From an uncultured Gammaproteobacteria bacterium (GTDB taxonomy: Bacteria > Patescibacteriota > Patescibacteriia > CAIXNZ01), in contig CAZHFK010000004.1 of NCBI GenBank assembly GCA_964531215.1, forward strand, positions 1 to 34,550: a stretch of 34,550 bases of DNA. The letters are read 5' to 3'. The translations under genes and the position numbers were made by a program. The stretch's first letter is position 1. Every line of letters begins with the position of its first letter. This document shows, piece by piece, positions 3,610 through 8,039 of this stretch. A model generated the notes under the pieces. The model was not told where the DNA came from. It did not search any database and was given only the letters and a program-made list of their open reading frames with translations.

Positions 3610-3978
3610 TTATTTGCCAAATAAGCGACTTAAAAAACCGCCTTTTTCTTCTTCTTGCTCACTACTCCCAGCTCTTGCTTCTTGCATTATTAAATTATAA
3701 ATCCTTTGGGCTTCTTGCTTAACCAAATCCGAATCATAATCACCCGAATGAGCTTTTTGGCCTTGATAAGAAGCTTGCTTTTGATCAATATGCAAACTTA
3801 AAATTAACGGATCTTCAGAATTAATATACATATGAAACCGCGGATAAAAACCTGACTGGCCTAAACGACGAGAATAACTGCGTTGCTCAGCTCTGGGATC
3901 ACGCACTAAGCCATAACCGCAACGGCGAATTAATTGATCAGTCGGTATATTGAATTTTTGTTTAAAATTAAGGTTCAT
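3610..3978 (-). CDS. Hypothetical protein (start revised to MNLNFKQ)
   Basis: ORF with YPRFHMY/LHIDQ motif; ATG at 3978 overlaps the hicA-like stop (ATGA). Confidence 0.7.
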   Translation of the reverse strand: MNLNFKQKFNIPTDQLIRRCGYGLVRDPRAEQRSYSRRLGQSGFYPRFHMYINSEDPLILSLHIDQKQASYQGQKAHSGDYDSDLVKQEAQRIYNLIMQEARAGSSEQEEEKGGFLSRLFGK

Positions 3979-4220
3979 AATTCTTTTTTTATATCTTGCC
4001 AATTAACATTACTAATTTCTTCTATTTCTTTAATTACATAAAACAAAACATCTTTTCTTATTTTTACTGGCACTGTCACAGACTTATCATTTGCCGGCCA
4101 AATTATTTTATAATGACTACCATCACCACCCTTTTTATCTATAATAAAACCGAGTCGCTTTAACGCCTTGGTAAATTTTCTACGCTTAATTTCTCCTGGC
4201 AATTCGCTAAGCGAGGGCAT
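3975..4220 (-). CDS. hicA: HicA-family toxin (start revised to MPSLSELPG)
   Basis: 81 aa, basic; KALKRLGF...GGDGSHYKI...VTVP matches the HicA dsRBD-like pattern with catalytic His. Confidence 0.8.
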   Translation of the reverse strand: MPSLSELPGEIKRRKFTKALKRLGFIIDKKGGDGSHYKIIWPANDKSVTVPVKIRKDVLFYVIKEIEEISNVNWQDIKKEL

Positions 4221-4533
4221 AAGCTTCTTGATTGGCATTAACTTTATGCAATCCAGCTTTATTAGCAAATGAAGAAGGAATCTCAAAAGAGGTTAAAATC
4301 GCATCTTTGATCTTTTTATCTAATTCTTTTTCATTTTCTGCAGAGGTAATAATTGAACCATACTTGAAATTTGTACTAACAGCAATTACTTCGTCGTCTT
4401 TTCTTTCAAATTTAAAATTAATCGGTTCATAAATACGAAAATAATGCTCCAATTCATAAAGACCACTGGGCACATATTCTTTTCCCCACAATTTCTTCAA
4501 TAAAATATCTTTCATTTTTCTTGTAAATGACAT
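4207..4533 (-). CDS. HicB-like antitoxin (N-terminal partial RNase H-like domain only)
   Basis: EVIAVS...IITSAENEKELDKKIKDAI resembles the HicB N-domain; overlaps the hicA start; start 4533 or 4515. Confidence 0.6.
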   Translation of the reverse strand: MSFTRKMKDILLKKLWGKEYVPSGLYELEHYFRIYEPINFKFERKDDEVIAVSTNFKYGSIITSAENEKELDKKIKDAILTSFEIPSSFANKAGLHKVNANQEAYALA

Positions 4534-4541
4534 GATAATCA

Positions 4542-4571
4542 AAGTTAACACAATTTAACTATATATGTCAA
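4542..4571 (-). promoter_or_regulatory. sigma70-type promoter with overlapping palindrome (possible TA operator)
   Basis: Minus strand TTGACA (4571-4566), then TG-n-TAACTT; AGTTAA-n6-TTAACT at 4543-4560. Confidence 0.5.
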
Positions 4572-4658
4572 TTATATCATATTATTAAAAAAATATAACG
4601 TTAGGAATGACAATGTGGGACGAGGATAGATTGTTCTTTAAGTATATTAAGATTCATA

Positions 4659-5012
4659 TTACTTCTCTTTTTCAAATTTCACTTTAAAAATCGGCATATA
4701 TTTATTCCCCCATTCATCAGTAATCTCCACTGTTTCGCCTTTCATTAATTTATTAAAAGCCAAATCACTAATCATTTCGTTATCAGTATCTATATCCAGT
4801 TTCAAATCTTCCAATTTTTCAAAATCTTTAACCATTGACTGCTTGATAACATTTTCTATTTCTTTTTTTTGCTGTTTTAATGATTCCAATTCATCCTTAA
4901 TTTCCTGATATTCCTGATTATTGGTTAGTTCATCTTTATAAGCCTGACGAATTGCTTTTTGTTCTTCTTTAAATTGATTTATACGATCATAAATTTCCTG
5001 TATTTTTGACAT
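4659..5012 (-). CDS. Coiled-coil hypothetical protein
   Basis: 117-aa E/K/Q-rich ORF ending GETVEITDEWGNKYMPIFKVKFEK. Confidence 0.75.
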   Translation of the reverse strand: MSKIQEIYDRINQFKEEQKAIRQAYKDELTNNQEYQEIKDELESLKQQKKEIENVIKQSMVKDFEKLEDLKLDIDTDNEMISDLAFNKLMKGETVEITDEWGNKYMPIFKVKFEKEK

Positions 5013-5090
5013 GCTTTTCTAAATTAATCATTAAGATTAATTTATTATACACAAAATTATCAAACAGCTCAATTGTTGATAAATTATAAA

Positions 5091-5167
5091 GTTGTTATTG
5101 GTCTGGCTTGAACTATATAAAAATCCCAATTTTTAAACTTTTGAGTCATAGCCCATTCAATATCACA
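5091..5167. repeat. Direct repeat copy A (77 bp, orphan copy of the 3' end of the PEP/pyruvate-binding gene)
   Basis: Identical to 5659-5735; the adjacent 5084-5090 also encodes T-L-stop with synonymous codons. Confidence 0.95.
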
Positions 5168-5178
5168 TAACAGTCGTT

Positions 5179-5207
5179 ATGTCATCCTGAATATATGAAG
5201 GATCTAC
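5179..5207 (+). repeat. Left REP-like inverted repeat
   Basis: atgtcatcctga-atatat-gaaggatctac; reverse complement of 5614-5643 except for the loop. Confidence 0.85.
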
Positions 5208-5257
5208 GACCCCATTTAGACGAGAATCATTTATAATCTCTACCGGACATAACGACC

Positions 5258-5548
5258 TTATTTAATTATATCATCGTAAAAATCGCGAAAATCAGGATTC
5301 ATTGATTGTATTAAAGCTATTTTCTTTTTTCTTATCCATCCCTTTATCTGTTTTTCTCTGGCAATAGCTTGATTTATATTGTTATATTCTTCAAAATAAA
5401 CTAATTTAGTGACATTATATTTTTTAGTAAATCCCTCAATTAATTTATTCTTATGTTGATATACACGACCAACTAAATCGCTTGTCACTCCAGTATAATT
5501 CACTGTGTTATAATTATTCATCATAATATATATCCAATAAGAATTCAT
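5258..5548 (-). CDS. GIY-YIG nuclease family protein (start revised to MNSYWIYIM)
   Basis: YWIYIM..NTVNYTGVTSDLVGRVYQHK..GFTKKYNVTKLVYFE..AIAREKQIKGW.R.KK, the small standalone GIY-YIG pattern. Confidence 0.93.
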   Translation of the reverse strand: MNSYWIYIMMNNYNTVNYTGVTSDLVGRVYQHKNKLIEGFTKKYNVTKLVYFEEYNNINQAIAREKQIKGWIRKKKIALIQSMNPDFRDFYDDIIK

Positions 5549-5613
5549 AATATTAATATCTAAGAAAAACATAATGTCTATCAAATATTCAAGTATTAAA
5601 AAAATGAGTAATT

Positions 5614-5643
5614 GTAGATCCTTCGACACGCTCAGGATGACAT
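5614..5643 (-). repeat. Right REP-like inverted repeat
   Basis: gtagatccttc-gacacgc-tcaggatgacat. Confidence 0.85.
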
Positions 5644-5651
5644 TATGTTTT

Positions 5652-6629
5652 TTAAAGTGTTGTTATTGGTCTGGCTTGAACTATATAAAAATCCCAATTT
5701 TTAAACTTTTGAGTCATAGCCCATTCAATATCACAAGGATGGCCGTAGTGTTTTTCAATCTTCTGACATATTTTACCCAAATCAACAATCTGTTCATCGG
5801 TTAATTTTTGTTTTTCCCTATCTTCTGAATCAATAGTAATCCAGTGATTGCCACCGTTTTCTGTATTATCACGAACAATTTTTTTATCCTGTTTGGAAAT
5901 ATTAATATCAATTATTTCCCAGTCATCTTTATTAATCACATAAGAATCAGGCGTAATCTGACCACCAACAATAGCCTCACCCAAACCATAACCGGCTTCA
6001 ATTATCATTTGATTATTATCTTTAGTTACCGGATGAACTGTAAAGGTAATGCCTGAAATATCAGATTCAATCATGACTTGAATAACCACTGCGACTGAAA
6101 CCTTAATTTCTCGCATACCTTTTTCCATCCGATAAACAATGGCTCTCGGCGTAAAAAGTGAGGACCAACATTTTTTAATATTACCAATCAAATGATCTTG
6201 GTCAGTATTTAAATACGACTCCAATTCTCCTGCCCAGGAAGCAGTAGATGAATCTTCAGCCGTCGCACTGGAACGTACTGCAACCCAACGTACATCTCCG
6301 CCAGAGGCGGATAATTTTTTAAACTCTGCCATTATTTCTGTCTGCAAATCCTCTGGAAACTTAGCATCATGGATTAAATCAGCAATAGTACGTGAAGCCT
6401 CGTCAACAGAATTTACATCTTCATAATTAACTTTATTTAACTGCGCTTCAATTTCCTGAACTAAATCAGTTTCCGCTAAAAACTGATCAAAAGCTGAAGC
6501 AGTAACCACAAATCCGGGCGGCACAGGAATACCGGCCTGAGTCATTTCACCCAAAGAAGCGCCTTTACCGCCGGCGAGATGAGTGTCGGTTTTATTTAGT
6601 TGTGTGAAATTTTTGATAAAGTCTGACAT
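5652..6629 (-). CDS. PEP/pyruvate-binding (ATP-grasp) domain protein; N-terminal module of the PEP synthase/PPDK family
   Basis: GGKGASLGEM, VPPGFV, VAVRSSATAED, EAGYGLGEAIVGGQITPD, DIEWA, QARPIT; lacks the His and PEP-binding C-terminal domains. Confidence 0.9.
   Translation of the reverse strand: MSDFIKNFTQLNKTDTHLAGGKGASLGEMTQAGIPVPPGFVVTASAFDQFLAETDLVQEIEAQLNKVNYEDVNSVDEASRTIADLIHDAKFPEDLQTEIMAEFKKLSASGGDVRWVAVRSSATAEDSSTASWAGELESYLNTDQDHLIGNIKKCWSSLFTPRAIVYRMEKGMREIKVSVAVVIQVMIESDISGITFTVHPVTKDNNQMIIEAGYGLGEAIVGGQITPDSYVINKDDWEIIDINISKQDKKIVRDNTENGGNHWITIDSEDREKQKLTDEQIVDLGKICQKIEKHYGHPCDIEWAMTQKFKNWDFYIVQARPITTL
5659..5735. repeat. Direct repeat copy B (77 bp, within gene 3' end)
   Basis: Identical to 5091-5167. 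Confidence 0.95.
6297..6311. repeat. 15-bp palindrome in-frame in CDS (encodes SASGG)
   Basis: tccgcc-aga-ggcgga; exact reverse complement at 26136-26150. Confidence 0.8.
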
Positions 6630-6911
6630 ATAAGTTCATTATACTAATATATTGAGTTTAATATAATTTATTAAAATTAGCAACCAATTATTCAATTTTA
6701 TCGCCTAAAATTAGCCTAAAAAACAAAATTGAACAAAAAAACTATTGACAAATATTTACTCTTGTGATAAGTTATTATAATCTTTAAATATAAACAAAGG
6801 AGGTGTTCTTTGTAATCAATAAATATTTAATGGGTAAAGAAACAAGTTAGCTTGCGTTTTAATGTAAGCTTGGGAAAAATCAAACACAAAAGGAAAGAAA
6901 GGAGAGAAAAC

Positions 6912-8039
6912 ATGAAGAAAAAAAGGCTTTCCCTGATGGCAATGGTATTGGGCATAATCATGACCATGGCAATCGGCTGCGGCACGGCAGAAGACGGCTA
7001 CAACAACGTTCCCCAAAACCCGATCGTAGGTCCCGAAGAAATCGGCGAAAACCCGGCCCCGAATCCCAGCGACACTGAAAACGTGAGCGTGGCCATTGAG
7101 TTCACGGACGAATACCTGTCCACCAACACCGAACTGGCCGAATGGATGGCACTCAAGGAAGCTGAGCAGACCTGCGAAGAAAGCGGGAATATCTGTCCCC
7201 AGCTCGTCACGGGCGCCCCGCCTGTCCAGATCTTCGGTACCCTGGTCTCGCAGGATGCCTGGGAAGACGATACTCGCTGGAATCCATGGGATACGACCCA
7301 GGCCAACGTGAGAGACGTCTCCGCCTTTGTCAGTGGCAACGTGTTGACCATGTCGTTTACCGTACCCGTGGGACGTTATTACCATCTGGGCTACATAGTC
7401 CAAGGCGTGATGATGTTCCACAATATCTCGGTCAACGGTACGACCATTAACAGCTTCTGCACGCTGGGCGACCCGGTAGATTATTGGACTTGGGGCGTCG
7501 CGGCCTTTAAGGTCAATCGCCTCAGTGACGGCTCGATCGTGGTTGAGGAGAGCGAATTCTGCAGCGAAACCGGCTATAACGCGCTCTGGACATTGAGCGG
7601 CGTGTCCCAGGACAACCCGCTATACAGCGACAGTCCCTCGGTATTGCCCTACGATGACGGTGCTGACGGAGACGACGAAGGCCCGATCATGATGTCCAGT
7701 AACCTGATCTACAATTCAACGCCGGTAGAAATAACCAACTTCAACGCGGCCAGTGCGAGATACGAAGCAGACTTCTATTTGCTCGAGGGCATGGCCAGCC
7801 GGTTTGCCTGCTATCATCCGGGACGTGAAGTCACTGGCAGCGCCGACGTACCCTGCGCCGACCAGAAACTGACTCTGACACCTCTGCCGTCAGGAACCGC
7901 CGGAGCCTCGCAGGAACTGCGACATGCGGAAAACTTCCAGACCACATTGCCGGCATACTACGAGTTCACCCTAAACGGCATCACCAGCGGTGTGCTCGAC
8001 CAGGACGCCAATAACCGCGATACCGTCCTCGGTATCTAA
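6912..8039 (+). CDS. GC-rich acidic putative lipoprotein (start revised to MKKKRLS)
   Basis: Basic N-terminus, hydrophobic stretch and lipobox-like MAIGC; purine-rich RBS ggagag; GC content far above flanks. Confidence 0.8.
   Translation: MKKKRLSLMAMVLGIIMTMAIGCGTAEDGYNNVPQNPIVGPEEIGENPAPNPSDTENVSVAIEFTDEYLSTNTELAEWMALKEAEQTCEESGNICPQLVTGAPPVQIFGTLVSQDAWEDDTRWNPWDTTQANVRDVSAFVSGNVLTMSFTVPVGRYYHLGYIVQGVMMFHNISVNGTTINSFCTLGDPVDYWTWGVAAFKVNRLSDGSIVVEESEFCSETGYNALWTLSGVSQDNPLYSDSPSVLPYDDGADGDDEGPIMMSSNLIYNSTPVEITNFNAASARYEADFYLLEGMASRFACYHPGREVTGSADVPCADQKLTLTPLPSGTAGASQELRHAENFQTTLPAYYEFTLNGITSGVLDQDANNRDTVLGI

Follow-up and report, generated by a model that had tools for sequence, protein, structure and literature searches.

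An Ssn-family nuclease cassette beside a duplicated gene end in a CPR-like genome, and a probable origin of the duplication

The end of a host gene occurs twice around a small nuclease cassette in the window analysed here, a 34,550-nt stretch of DNA from a CPR-like genome (1.03 Mb, in a 71-contig metagenome-type assembly). Judged by its sequence, the unit is a nuclease cassette of the Ssn family, matching the NTS/SRM-ssnA architecture, and not a new kind of element. The spare copy of the gene end looks like the scar left by acquisition of this cassette. We consider it rather probable that this copy, one half of an 84-nt direct repeat, is the end of the resident PPDK_N gene, displaced downstream by integrated DNA of a relative, and that the Ssn cassette arrived in this one-sided way. 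The main text of the 2025 paper on the Ssn family leaves open whether and how the hairpin-gene-hairpin unit moves (PMC11893778), a question on which the present locus and four look-alikes offer comparative evidence; this speaks for general recombination after DNA uptake rather than for a transposase-like reaction.

Layout of the cassette and its nuclease

The host gene (5652..6629, - strand) encodes an intact, stand-alone PPDK_N (PEP/pyruvate-binding) protein of 325 aa (Pfam PF01326, E 5.1e-103), for which NCBIfam PEP synthase models match the N-terminal part only. Between its stop codon and the nuclease gene lies hairpin unit A (5565..5652, - strand). The nuclease gene itself, ssn (5258..5548, - strand), codes for a single-domain GIY-YIG protein of 96 aa assigned to the Ssn family (Pfam PF01541, E 3.7e-15), and is followed downstream by hairpin unit B (5173..5256, + strand). 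Both units are palindromic, with lengths of 84 nt (B) and 88 nt (A). Unit A is closed by an exact 14-bp stem (5565-5578 / 5639-5652), which the preliminary description had missed, and encloses a good SRM core at 5617-5641 that reads GTCAT... on the - strand. Unit B is closed by an exact 11-bp stem (5173-5183 / 5246-5256), the one described earlier, around a good SRM core at 5181-5204 on the + strand. Each unit also holds a second core, inverted and decayed. Beyond unit B lies what appears to be the remnant of a displaced PPDK_N 3' end (5084..5167, - strand; 28 codons + stop, ending ACA ACT TTA TAA), with neither a start codon nor a gene body upstream; its edge is 5 nt from the closing stem and 13 nt from the GTCAT. 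In the present genome, the remnant adjoins the upstream spacer of the next host gene (4659..5012, - strand), which encodes a coiled-coil-like protein of 117 aa with no family. The insert amounts to 568 bp and can be placed at 5091-5658 or, equally, at 5168-5735.

The 96-aa GIY-YIG reading frame reported earlier between inverted repeats is present, and the idea of a compact unit of nuclease and inverted repeats holds up. So does the lack of a transposase: no match to a transposase or integrase family was obtained among the 6 neighbouring proteins scanned, none of which matches an HUH Y1 transposase family such as might accompany the palindromes, and the gene between the repeats is the GIY-YIG one. 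Searching the whole window with Rfam at gathering thresholds gave no family. In scans of positions 4950-5800, promoter-like sites numbered 3, fewer than the 6.7 expected, and no terminator turned up.

PF01541 covers residues 4-76 and is the only Pfam match in the 96 aa of the protein, whose relatives (n = 30) range from 92 to 112 aa. Residues Y7, Y18, G20, R28, H32, E65 and N84 are invariant across 20 aligned relatives, and the conserved Tyr, Arg, His, Glu and Asn presumably play the roles that they have in the GIY-YIG catalytic fold. An NCBIfam search with the nuclease gave no match, and a search against the sequences of solved structures returned only 1zg2_A (UPF0213), at E 0.29. The main text of Chenal et al. 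(2025, Nat Commun; PMC11893778) describes an NTS-ssnA-NTS architecture in Neisseria meningitidis, with an SsnA of 94 aa and an NTS consensus of CGTCATTCCCGCGMAVGCGGGAATCYRG. In CDD, the Ssn system corresponds to cd10448 (GIY-YIG_unchar_3). This Neisseria consensus, in the form GTCATTCCCGCG-N4-GCGGGAATC, flanks five related loci (L070, L080, L107, L115 and L149) whose proteins are 47-57% identical. The assignment to Ssn is thus based on the single GIY-YIG domain, the flanking GTCAT hairpins and the relatives flanked by the Neisseria consensus. According to the same text, the characterised members cut only ssDNA, beside their own hairpin, and neither bind nor cut dsDNA (PMC11893778); by analogy, the present enzyme should bind its hairpin in ssDNA and cut a few bases 5' of GTCAT. 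A tree of 109 Ssn proteins, in which only 5 of the 106 inner branches are well supported, gives for the present locus a family-level clade made up of G000, G010, G007, G001 and G004; such a tree cannot prove transfer between phyla.

The hairpin motif and its distribution

The two good cores carry, in inverted orientation, the motif GTCATCCTGA-N6/7-GAAGGATC, whose pattern has 5 matches in the whole genome, while the control, the reversed pattern, has 0. These repeats had been called REP-like. They are not RAYT-type REPs but belong to an Ssn-related hairpin motif, with the order GTCAT, 5-bp stem, loop, complementary stem and C, whose pairing with the nuclease was published in 2025 (PMC11893778). 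The 5-bp stem of the present variant is A+T-rich. The published degenerate SRM pattern, which demands a pyrimidine/GC-rich stem, matches nowhere in the window or in the genome as a whole (0 in each, compared with 0-2 in shuffles), and it occurs near the gene in only 6 of 110 related loci. A+T-rich and ATTGC-type stems, which this pattern overlooks, are dominant among the relatives of the present protein.

The locus scan used a 6-sequence alignment, the 20-sequence alignment being too divergent. Hairpins number 250 in the 43,249 bp near the gene, whereas 202,365 bp of more distant sequence contain 30. In loci from other phyla (n = 80), they are found on both sides in 52 cases, on one side in 16 and on neither in 12, and the forward-upstream/reverse-downstream layout seen here is shared by 42 of the 80. 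The stems covary: among 153 candidates, picked regardless of pairing, 122, comprising 9 stem types, are complementary at each of the 3 variable positions, whereas 1000 re-paired controls average 29 and never exceed 43.

Folded as ssDNA, unit A (5560-5656) reaches -12.3 kcal/mol (z -3.9, with 0 of 200 shuffles as good) and unit B (5168-5260) reaches -10.8 kcal/mol (z -2.5, with 1 of 200 as good). For the 35-nt hairpin cores alone, z is -0.4 and -0.5, and 58 and 56 of 200 shuffles are as good. A loose hairpin rule applied genome-wide gives 28 matches, against 29-36 in shuffles, and is informative near ssn genes only; about 8 loose copies of the motif are present in the host genome, compared with hundreds in the published system.

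Two copies of one gene end

The direct repeat (5084-5167 / 5652-5735) is 84 nt long, with 96% identity, and includes the two identical 77-bp copies that the preliminary description had pointed out (77/77 in the inner part). Translation of either copy gives CDIEWAMTQKFKNWDFYIVQARPITTL-stop. The differences between them are synonymous and confined to the last two sense codons, which are ACT TTA in the orphan and ACA CTT in the working copy, the latter being the last 84 nt of the PPDK_N gene (5652-5735, - strand), ending ACA ACA CTT TAA. This distribution, with 0 differences in 77 nt and then 3 in the last 7, weighs against the displacement favoured below, which would need a crossover at the extreme end of the gene or subsequent gene conversion.

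Host-sequence direct repeats bracket the cassette at 4 of the 106 loci searched, the present one included. The others measure 75 nt (L151) and 36 nt (L131), both from a 3' end, and 45 nt (L104), from a 5' end. In addition, a PPDK_N orthologue in L050 is followed by a pair of hairpins without cargo and then by a 45-nt copy of the PPDK_N end. The preliminary description had suggested checking homologues for both features; at 93 of 110 loci, at least one hairpin is no more than 200 nt away from the gene. Since only 4 of 106 cassettes show a scar, most insertions leave none or have another origin. One further flanking repeat, of 26 nt, was seen at L095.

Across the five paired copies there are 20 differences, comprising 12 synonymous, 2 stop-to-stop and 6 non-synonymous ones, so that 14 of 20 are silent. 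A random-substitution simulation gives 3.7 +/- 1.8 silent differences, and 0 of 20,000 runs reach 14; the five pairs were chosen after being seen, and the simulated substitutions have no transition bias. The copies at L050 and L151 have diverged by 4-10%, with a silent bias, and no orphan 3' end has lost its in-frame stop codon. The silent excess and the retained stop codons constitute a mark of purifying selection on both copies, and the silent-biased differences favour recombination with the allele of a relative over fill-in transposition and homing.

In the gene-end displacement that we favour, the donor DNA from a relative would carry a PPDK_N end, a hairpin unit, ssn and a second hairpin unit. 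One side would pair homologously within the gene end, and the other would be joined illegitimately, about 13 nt outside the far hairpin, the resident gene end being pushed downstream and left as the orphan at 5084-5167. Such a process would correspond to homology-facilitated illegitimate recombination; an equivalent alternative would be one crossover with a circular molecule that contains the cassette plus the gene end. The working gene would therefore end in donor-type synonymous codons. The ending of the orphan is that of the G010 and G002 orthologues; that of the working copy is absent from all 8 orthologues, and a donor allele ending ACACTTTAA was not found. A metagenome scan with PPDK_N returned 4 loci, the closest 78% identical, with no strain-level empty or donor allele. 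The notion that the element spreads while restoring its target agrees with the intact gene beside a spare end, but the silent bias points to the allele of a relative and not to restoring repair. RecA could excise the cassette scarlessly via the two 77-nt repeats.

Sequence comparison also supports the view that the cassette has turned over at orthologous sites. Within the family, 8 PPDK_N orthologues were compared: two (G010 and G004) have ssn after the gene, two more (G013 and G005) have only hairpins there, and for the remaining four (G011, G002, G012, G009) neither was observed. G001, from the same genus, has an ssn that is 64% identical and lies behind a different gene, with a stop codon adjoining the same spacer. 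Its flanking proteins are 94, 83 and 87% identical, and an ssn at 64% beside neighbours at 83-94% argues for replacement rather than for in-place evolution.

More tentatively, Ssn cassettes in general may be mobile and spread among related genomes by natural transformation, with a hitch-hiking host-gene homology arm, the nuclease cutting the incoming single strand just outside the far hairpin and the free end so created then being joined illegitimately, with displacement of the resident gene end. The ComEC and DprA genes are present in the host genome, which bears on the plausibility of DNA uptake. If this were true, the direct repeats would make insertion reversible without a scar, and gene-end orphans beside hairpins would record transformation in uncultured bacteria, e.g., CPR.

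A local rearrangement, in which the hairpins stall replication and template switching or unequal exchange within the lineage duplicates the gene end without any contribution of foreign DNA, is an unlikely source of the repeat. It would suit the length of both palindromes (84 nt at -10.8 kcal/mol, 88 nt at -12.3 kcal/mol), copies that are identical over 77 nt, and a cassette that is also found at PPDK_N in two other genera and may, for this reason, be old here. However, it explains neither why three synonymous differences cluster at the extreme end of the present copies nor the 4-10% silent-biased divergence at L050 and L151, and the identities in G001 (64% for ssn, 83-94% for its neighbours) also speak against it.

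Transposition is distinctly unlikely. Here, Ssn would nick the two strands 36-84 nt apart, and insertion followed by gap filling would yield a long target-site duplication. The inverted terminal hairpins are IS-like, and the authors of the Ssn paper liken them to an insertion sequence in its main text (PMC11893778). The direct repeats do lie immediately outside the hairpin units, the present ones are identical at 77/77 nt, and their inner edge, GCCATCCTTG...GAATGGGC, is weakly motif-like, by eye only. Nevertheless, the repeat has no fixed length (36, 45, 45, 75 and 84 nt in the five cases) and is missing at 102 of the 106 loci. An orphan produced in this way would be identical at first and should then decay randomly, yet 14 of the 20 differences are silent and all 3' orphans keep the stop codon. 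Chance would also have to make the 7 nt beside the hairpin unit read Thr-Leu-stop in frame. Moreover, to our knowledge, GIY-YIG enzymes do not join DNA.

Read support for the duplication was assessed via contigs built from 31-mers in 4 runs (X1-X4), and these independent contigs confirm only one of the two junctions. An X2 contig (5091-5445) bridges the repeat and the left part of the insert, but positions 5647-5658, at the other junction, are covered by no contig in any of the 4 runs. An X1 contig extends 30 nt into the repeat; X1 represents a strain with 5 differences in 4600-5094, separate contigs of it continue from the repeat towards the insert and towards the gene body, and its depths are similar (3.6-3.8) for flank, insert and gene. 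One X3 contig joins 5090 to 5659, skipping 568 nt, which fits either an empty allele or a path through the repeat. As the repeat is 77 nt long, the occupied form already supplies all the 31-mers needed to build this contig, and the search for empty alleles therefore yielded no unambiguous one. The fragmented, 71-contig metagenome-type assembly, the uncovered junction and the X3 contig would all fit an assembly artefact, or occupied and empty alleles collapsed into one contig. This is very unlikely: the X2 contig passes from the repeat into the insert, the X1 contigs leave the repeat both ways at like depths, and the same layout is found at four further loci in other assemblies.

The nuclease-triggered homing proposed earlier, in which cassette-free alleles are cut and repair copies the cassette in, is the most improbable reading, since, despite a GIY-YIG fold common to I-TevI and Seg enzymes and the occupation of the same gene end in several genera, the protein is a single 96-aa domain without a DNA-binding domain, its characterised relatives act only on ssDNA and target the cassette's own hairpin and not an empty site (PMC11893778, main text), gene conversion yields no duplication where one of 84 nt is present, and unrelated genes adjoin the cassettes across the 110 loci.

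Under the displacement reading, a cassette landing inside a gene end brings along an allelic-looking replacement end. Start-less gene-end copies beside GTCAT hairpins can then be annotated as scars instead of pseudogenes of unknown origin. The main text of the Ssn paper only hypothesises mobility, and neither the word 'duplication' nor the word Patescibacteria occurs in it (PMC11893778).

Comparison with known systems

I-TevI and the Seg proteins share with the present nuclease the catalytic fold and the positions of the conserved Tyr, Arg, His, Glu and Asn. Unlike them, it has no DNA-binding domain and no intron, cleavage of the empty site is not expected, and a target duplication is present. 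The cassette also differs from an insertion sequence or MITE by having no short target-site duplication of fixed length. With the REP/BIME-RAYT and IS200/IS605 systems it has in common a small nuclease gene, dispersed hairpins and action on ssDNA, a comparison drawn in the main text of the Ssn paper (PMC11893778). The fold here is, however, GIY-YIG and not HUH, and because the good hairpins lie on opposite strands, only one site per strand should be cleavable, unlike in those systems. We know of no covalent-intermediate chemistry for GIY-YIG enzymes.

As in integrative elements with attL/attR at tRNA and other genes, direct repeats of a gene end bracket the insert, and the end borne by the element keeps the gene intact. 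Unlike in these, there is no integrase match in the 6 neighbours, the insert is only 568 bp long, and the repeat length varies from case to case. The rhs and CDI loci have orphan C-terminal tips, gene ends displaced by incoming alleles. The present locus resembles them in having an intact gene with a new end and cargo, followed by a start-less orphan old end, and in that both ends look to have evolved under selection. It differs in its cargo, a nuclease with hairpins rather than a toxin-immunity pair, and in its repeats of only 36-84 nt; moreover, since its two ends specify an identical or almost identical peptide, the exchange brings in no new function. The arrangement of one homologous and one illegitimate side is that of homology-facilitated illegitimate recombination, which is described as occurring in transformation (PMC3240628).

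The closest likeness is with the Ssn/SRM system of SsnA in N. meningitidis, which likewise has a GIY-YIG protein with one domain and some 95 aa, its gene lying between inverted, oriented GTCAT hairpins with covarying stems. The present locus differs from the published system in its CPR-like host, in an A+T-rich stem that is missed by the pattern, in its approximately 8 loose copies, and in that each arm is a longer palindromic unit.

Cassette layout at the end of the PPDK_N gene

The PPDK_N gene (5652-6629, minus strand) is intact and encodes a stand-alone PPDK_N domain protein of 325 aa (Pfam E 5e-103). The host-gene duplication announced in the preliminary description consists of two direct repeats of 84 nt (5084-5167 and 5652-5735; 96% identity, inner 77 nt identical). 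The upstream copy forms the genuine gene end (working copy), and the other is a displaced, start-less end (orphan copy). Both encode CDIEWAMTQKFKNWDFYIVQARPITTL-stop on the minus strand, the sole difference being ACT TTA TAA versus ACA CTT TAA. Between them lies the predicted 96-aa ORF (5258-5548, minus strand), for which GIY-YIG is the only Pfam match (E 3.7e-15); it is designated ssn, after the Ssn family of single-domain GIY-YIG nucleases.

The inverted motif described earlier, GTCATCCTGA-N6/7-GAAGGATC, was found at 5181-5204 (plus strand) and 5617-5641 (minus strand), and it occurs five times in the 1.03-Mb genome, versus none for the control pattern read backwards. The 11-bp stem (5173-5183/5246-5256) was likewise recovered, and its partner on the opposite side of ssn is an exact 14-bp stem (5565-5578/5639-5652). 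Each side, thus, carries a palindromic unit of 84-88 nt (B, 5173-5256; A, 5565-5652), combining a good motif with a decayed, inverted one. Folded as single-stranded DNA, the units reach -10.8 kcal/mol (B, z -2.5) and -12.3 kcal/mol (A, z -3.9); the 35-nt hairpin cores folded alone are not better than shuffles. The outer edge of unit A shares one base with the host stop codon, and that of unit B is 5 nt away from the orphan copy.

The duplication can be compared with outside contigs, built from 31-mers of four sequencing runs. Those of X2 and X4 match the window exactly, and their independence from it is uncertain; those of X1 and X3, from another study, represent a strain with 5 differences in 4600-5094. 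The junction between the repeat and the left end of the insert is supported by an X2 contig (5091-5445), and in X1, separate contigs lead out of the repeat, to the insert and to the gene body, at similar depths (3.6-3.8); the junction at 5647-5658 is covered by contigs of none of the runs. One X3 contig joins 5090 to 5659, the sequence expected of an empty allele, but the repeat exceeds the word length, so this join is ambiguous: 31-mers of the occupied form could also produce it. Neither a donor allele nor a certain empty allele was found among the orthologues, the metagenome scan, and the run contigs.

Other small GIY-YIG genes and hairpin elements occur in the same genome. On contig C55 (3491-4400), two such genes (matches over 78 and 67 aa, Pfam E ~1e-17) flank a tRNA-Tyr, and one of them is preceded by a copy of the tRNA's initial ~36 nt, interrupted by a 71-nt hairpin-rich insert. 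A third (C56, 4399-4617) is located between a tRNA-Leu and a tRNA-like sequence at the contig end, near a sequence that partially repeats the tRNA 5' region in inverted orientation. Cargo-less palindromic hairpin pairs occupy intergenic spacers on C10 (29020-29100) and C15 (7186-7330), where one arm has the stem ATTCT/AGAAT, not ATCCT/AGGAT, a compensatory change within one genome. A different G+C-rich repeat of ~60 nt (GGAAACCCCG...GAGTGCGGGG) stands beside identical hairpin motifs on C20 (2930-3130) and C58 (4320-4490). A degenerate Ssn-type motif pair on C21 (19528-19600) is read through in frame in a QueA-like ORF (...CRPSCHPEPVEASNEAGSKKNITFQHAQYD...), and resembles the in-frame palindromic elements of Rickettsia.

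Turnover of the PPDK_N locus

The locus has turned over among eight family orthologues of the PPDK_N gene: ssn lies directly behind it in two genomes (G010, G004), hairpins alone lie downstream in two (G013, G005), and neither is present within the stretch read downstream in four (G011, G002, G012, G009). G004 and the window have further-downstream genes in common, for a 130-aa protein and ribosomal protein L9. In G001, of the same genus as the window, ssn lies behind the partner gene (PEP-utilizers domain), not PPDK_N, and abuts exactly the spacer that adjoins the orphan copy in the window. The Ssn proteins of these two genomes are only 64% identical, compared with 94, 83, and 87% for neighbour proteins and 92% for the PPDK_N fragment, so the cassette has been replaced or re-acquired within one genus. 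The orphan ending, ACAACTTTATAA, is that of the G010 and G002 orthologues; none of the eight has the ending of the working copy.

The PEP-utilizers-domain gene, the usual neighbour, follows PPDK_N in G010, G013, and G005, and is also present in G001. It has no orthologue in the window's genome, only weak matches to other genes on C1 and C15; the window's PPDK_N gene has lost this neighbour. Between the 117-aa and 130-aa genes, the window carries a gene of the HicA toxin family (Pfam E 2.7e-7), whose upstream partner, encoding 114 aa, overlaps it (3975-4551). G001 has this pair too. A tblastn search of the 2.7-kb G004 locus, in which ssn is immediately followed by the 130-aa gene, gave no match to the pair. 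Directly upstream of PPDK_N, a 47-57% G+C island (6800-8000) within the ~30% G+C contig may be of foreign origin or reflect a chimeric join; its 395-aa ORF (6852-8039, plus strand) has a lipoprotein-like start and no Pfam match.

Recurrence and proposed origin of the gene-end duplication

The scar recurs elsewhere. On the metagenome contig L050, an orthologous PPDK_N gene (78% identical) is followed by a cargo-less hairpin pair and, beyond it, by a 45-nt copy of the PPDK_N end with its own stop codon. Host-sequence direct repeats bracketing the cassette were found in 4 of the 106 Ssn loci with usable flanks: the window, L151 (75 nt, from the 3' end of a gene for an ABC ATPase), L131 (36 nt, from a gene 3' end), and L104 (45 nt, from the 5' end of a gene resembling a restriction subunit; here the truncated copy is the upstream one). 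At the other 102, the flanking repeats are the hairpins themselves only, with no host-sequence repeat.

Over the five pairs of copies, the 20 differences comprise 12 synonymous, 2 stop-to-stop, and 6 non-synonymous changes. The 14 silent differences exceed the 3.7 +/- 1.8 given by random substitution (14 was reached in 0 of 20,000 simulations), for pairs selected after being seen and a simulation without mutation bias. Given this excess, both copies resemble gene ends that remained in use during their divergence, i.e., alleles of different lineages.

Such copies probably arose when a relative's DNA, carrying its own gene end and cassette, paired with the resident gene end; an illegitimate join of its other end, upstream of the region of pairing, would then have duplicated 36-84 nt. 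In the five cases, this other end lies 7-13 nt outside the far GTCAT, the start of the hairpin repeat. Homology-facilitated illegitimate recombination is described as having this outcome (PMC3240628), and a circle integrating by single crossover would yield an identical product to this one-sided recombination. In Neisseria, the family enzyme is described as acting during transformation, when it cuts incoming single-stranded DNA next to the hairpin (PMC11893778), and ComEC and DprA are present in the window's genome. From these two points, we speculate that the Ssn enzyme itself, assumed from its relatives to be active in the window, may make the free end for the illegitimate join. Fill-in of a staggered target site, as an origin of the repeats, ranks lower than one-sided recombination, as it leaves the silent bias, the kept stop codons, and the variable repeat length unexplained. 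Homing, the type of spread first suggested, also ranks lower, being a poor fit to a protein of 96 aa with relatives that do not act on double-stranded DNA.

Relation to the published Ssn system

SsnA of Neisseria meningitidis is described as a single-domain GIY-YIG protein of 94 aa, which binds NTS (CGTCATTCCCGCGMAVGCGGGAATCYRG), a hairpin repeat, solely in single-stranded DNA and cleaves just upstream of it (Chenal et al. 2025, PMC11893778). Ssn homologues are present in 36 of 61 related genomes, and also across many phyla, where the best 80 of 574 relatives were retained (53-67% identity). With the rule GTC-A[T/C]NNN-loop-complement-C, hairpins are ~39 times denser near ssn genes (250 in 43,249 bp) than at least 500 nt away (30 in 202,365 bp). 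In 93 of 110 loci, at least one hairpin lies within 200 nt of the gene. Among the best 80 of 574 from other phyla, hairpins flank both sides in 52, one side in 16, and neither in 12, with the inverted outward layout in 42. When the 3' half-site was picked regardless of pairing, full complementarity at the three variable stem positions was seen in 122 of 153 candidates, which represent 9 stem types (re-paired controls: mean 29, maximum 43).

The Neisseria consensus itself flanks several relatives. Nevertheless, the published degenerate pattern of Ssn-related motifs (SRM) has no match in the window and its genome, which counts against Ssn membership, and matches in only 6 of 110 related loci. 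On architecture and homology, the window's unit is classed as an Ssn family member whose hairpin variant the published pattern does not cover.

The nuclease-hairpin pairing is already published (PMC11893778). The main text of that paper, whose genome and locus lists are in supplements, contains neither 'duplication' nor 'Patescibacteria', and no later paper on movement of Ssn-hairpin units was found in the literature searched. The present analysis adds a second scar at PPDK_N, from a different lineage, a further three scars in Chloroflexota, and a test of silent substitutions. Chenal et al. report SRMs on both sides of 42% of SsnA homologues, and note the insertion-sequence-like look of this layout, with mobility put forward as a hypothesis (PMC11893778). 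The window's unit has the same architecture as the SsnA layout described there.
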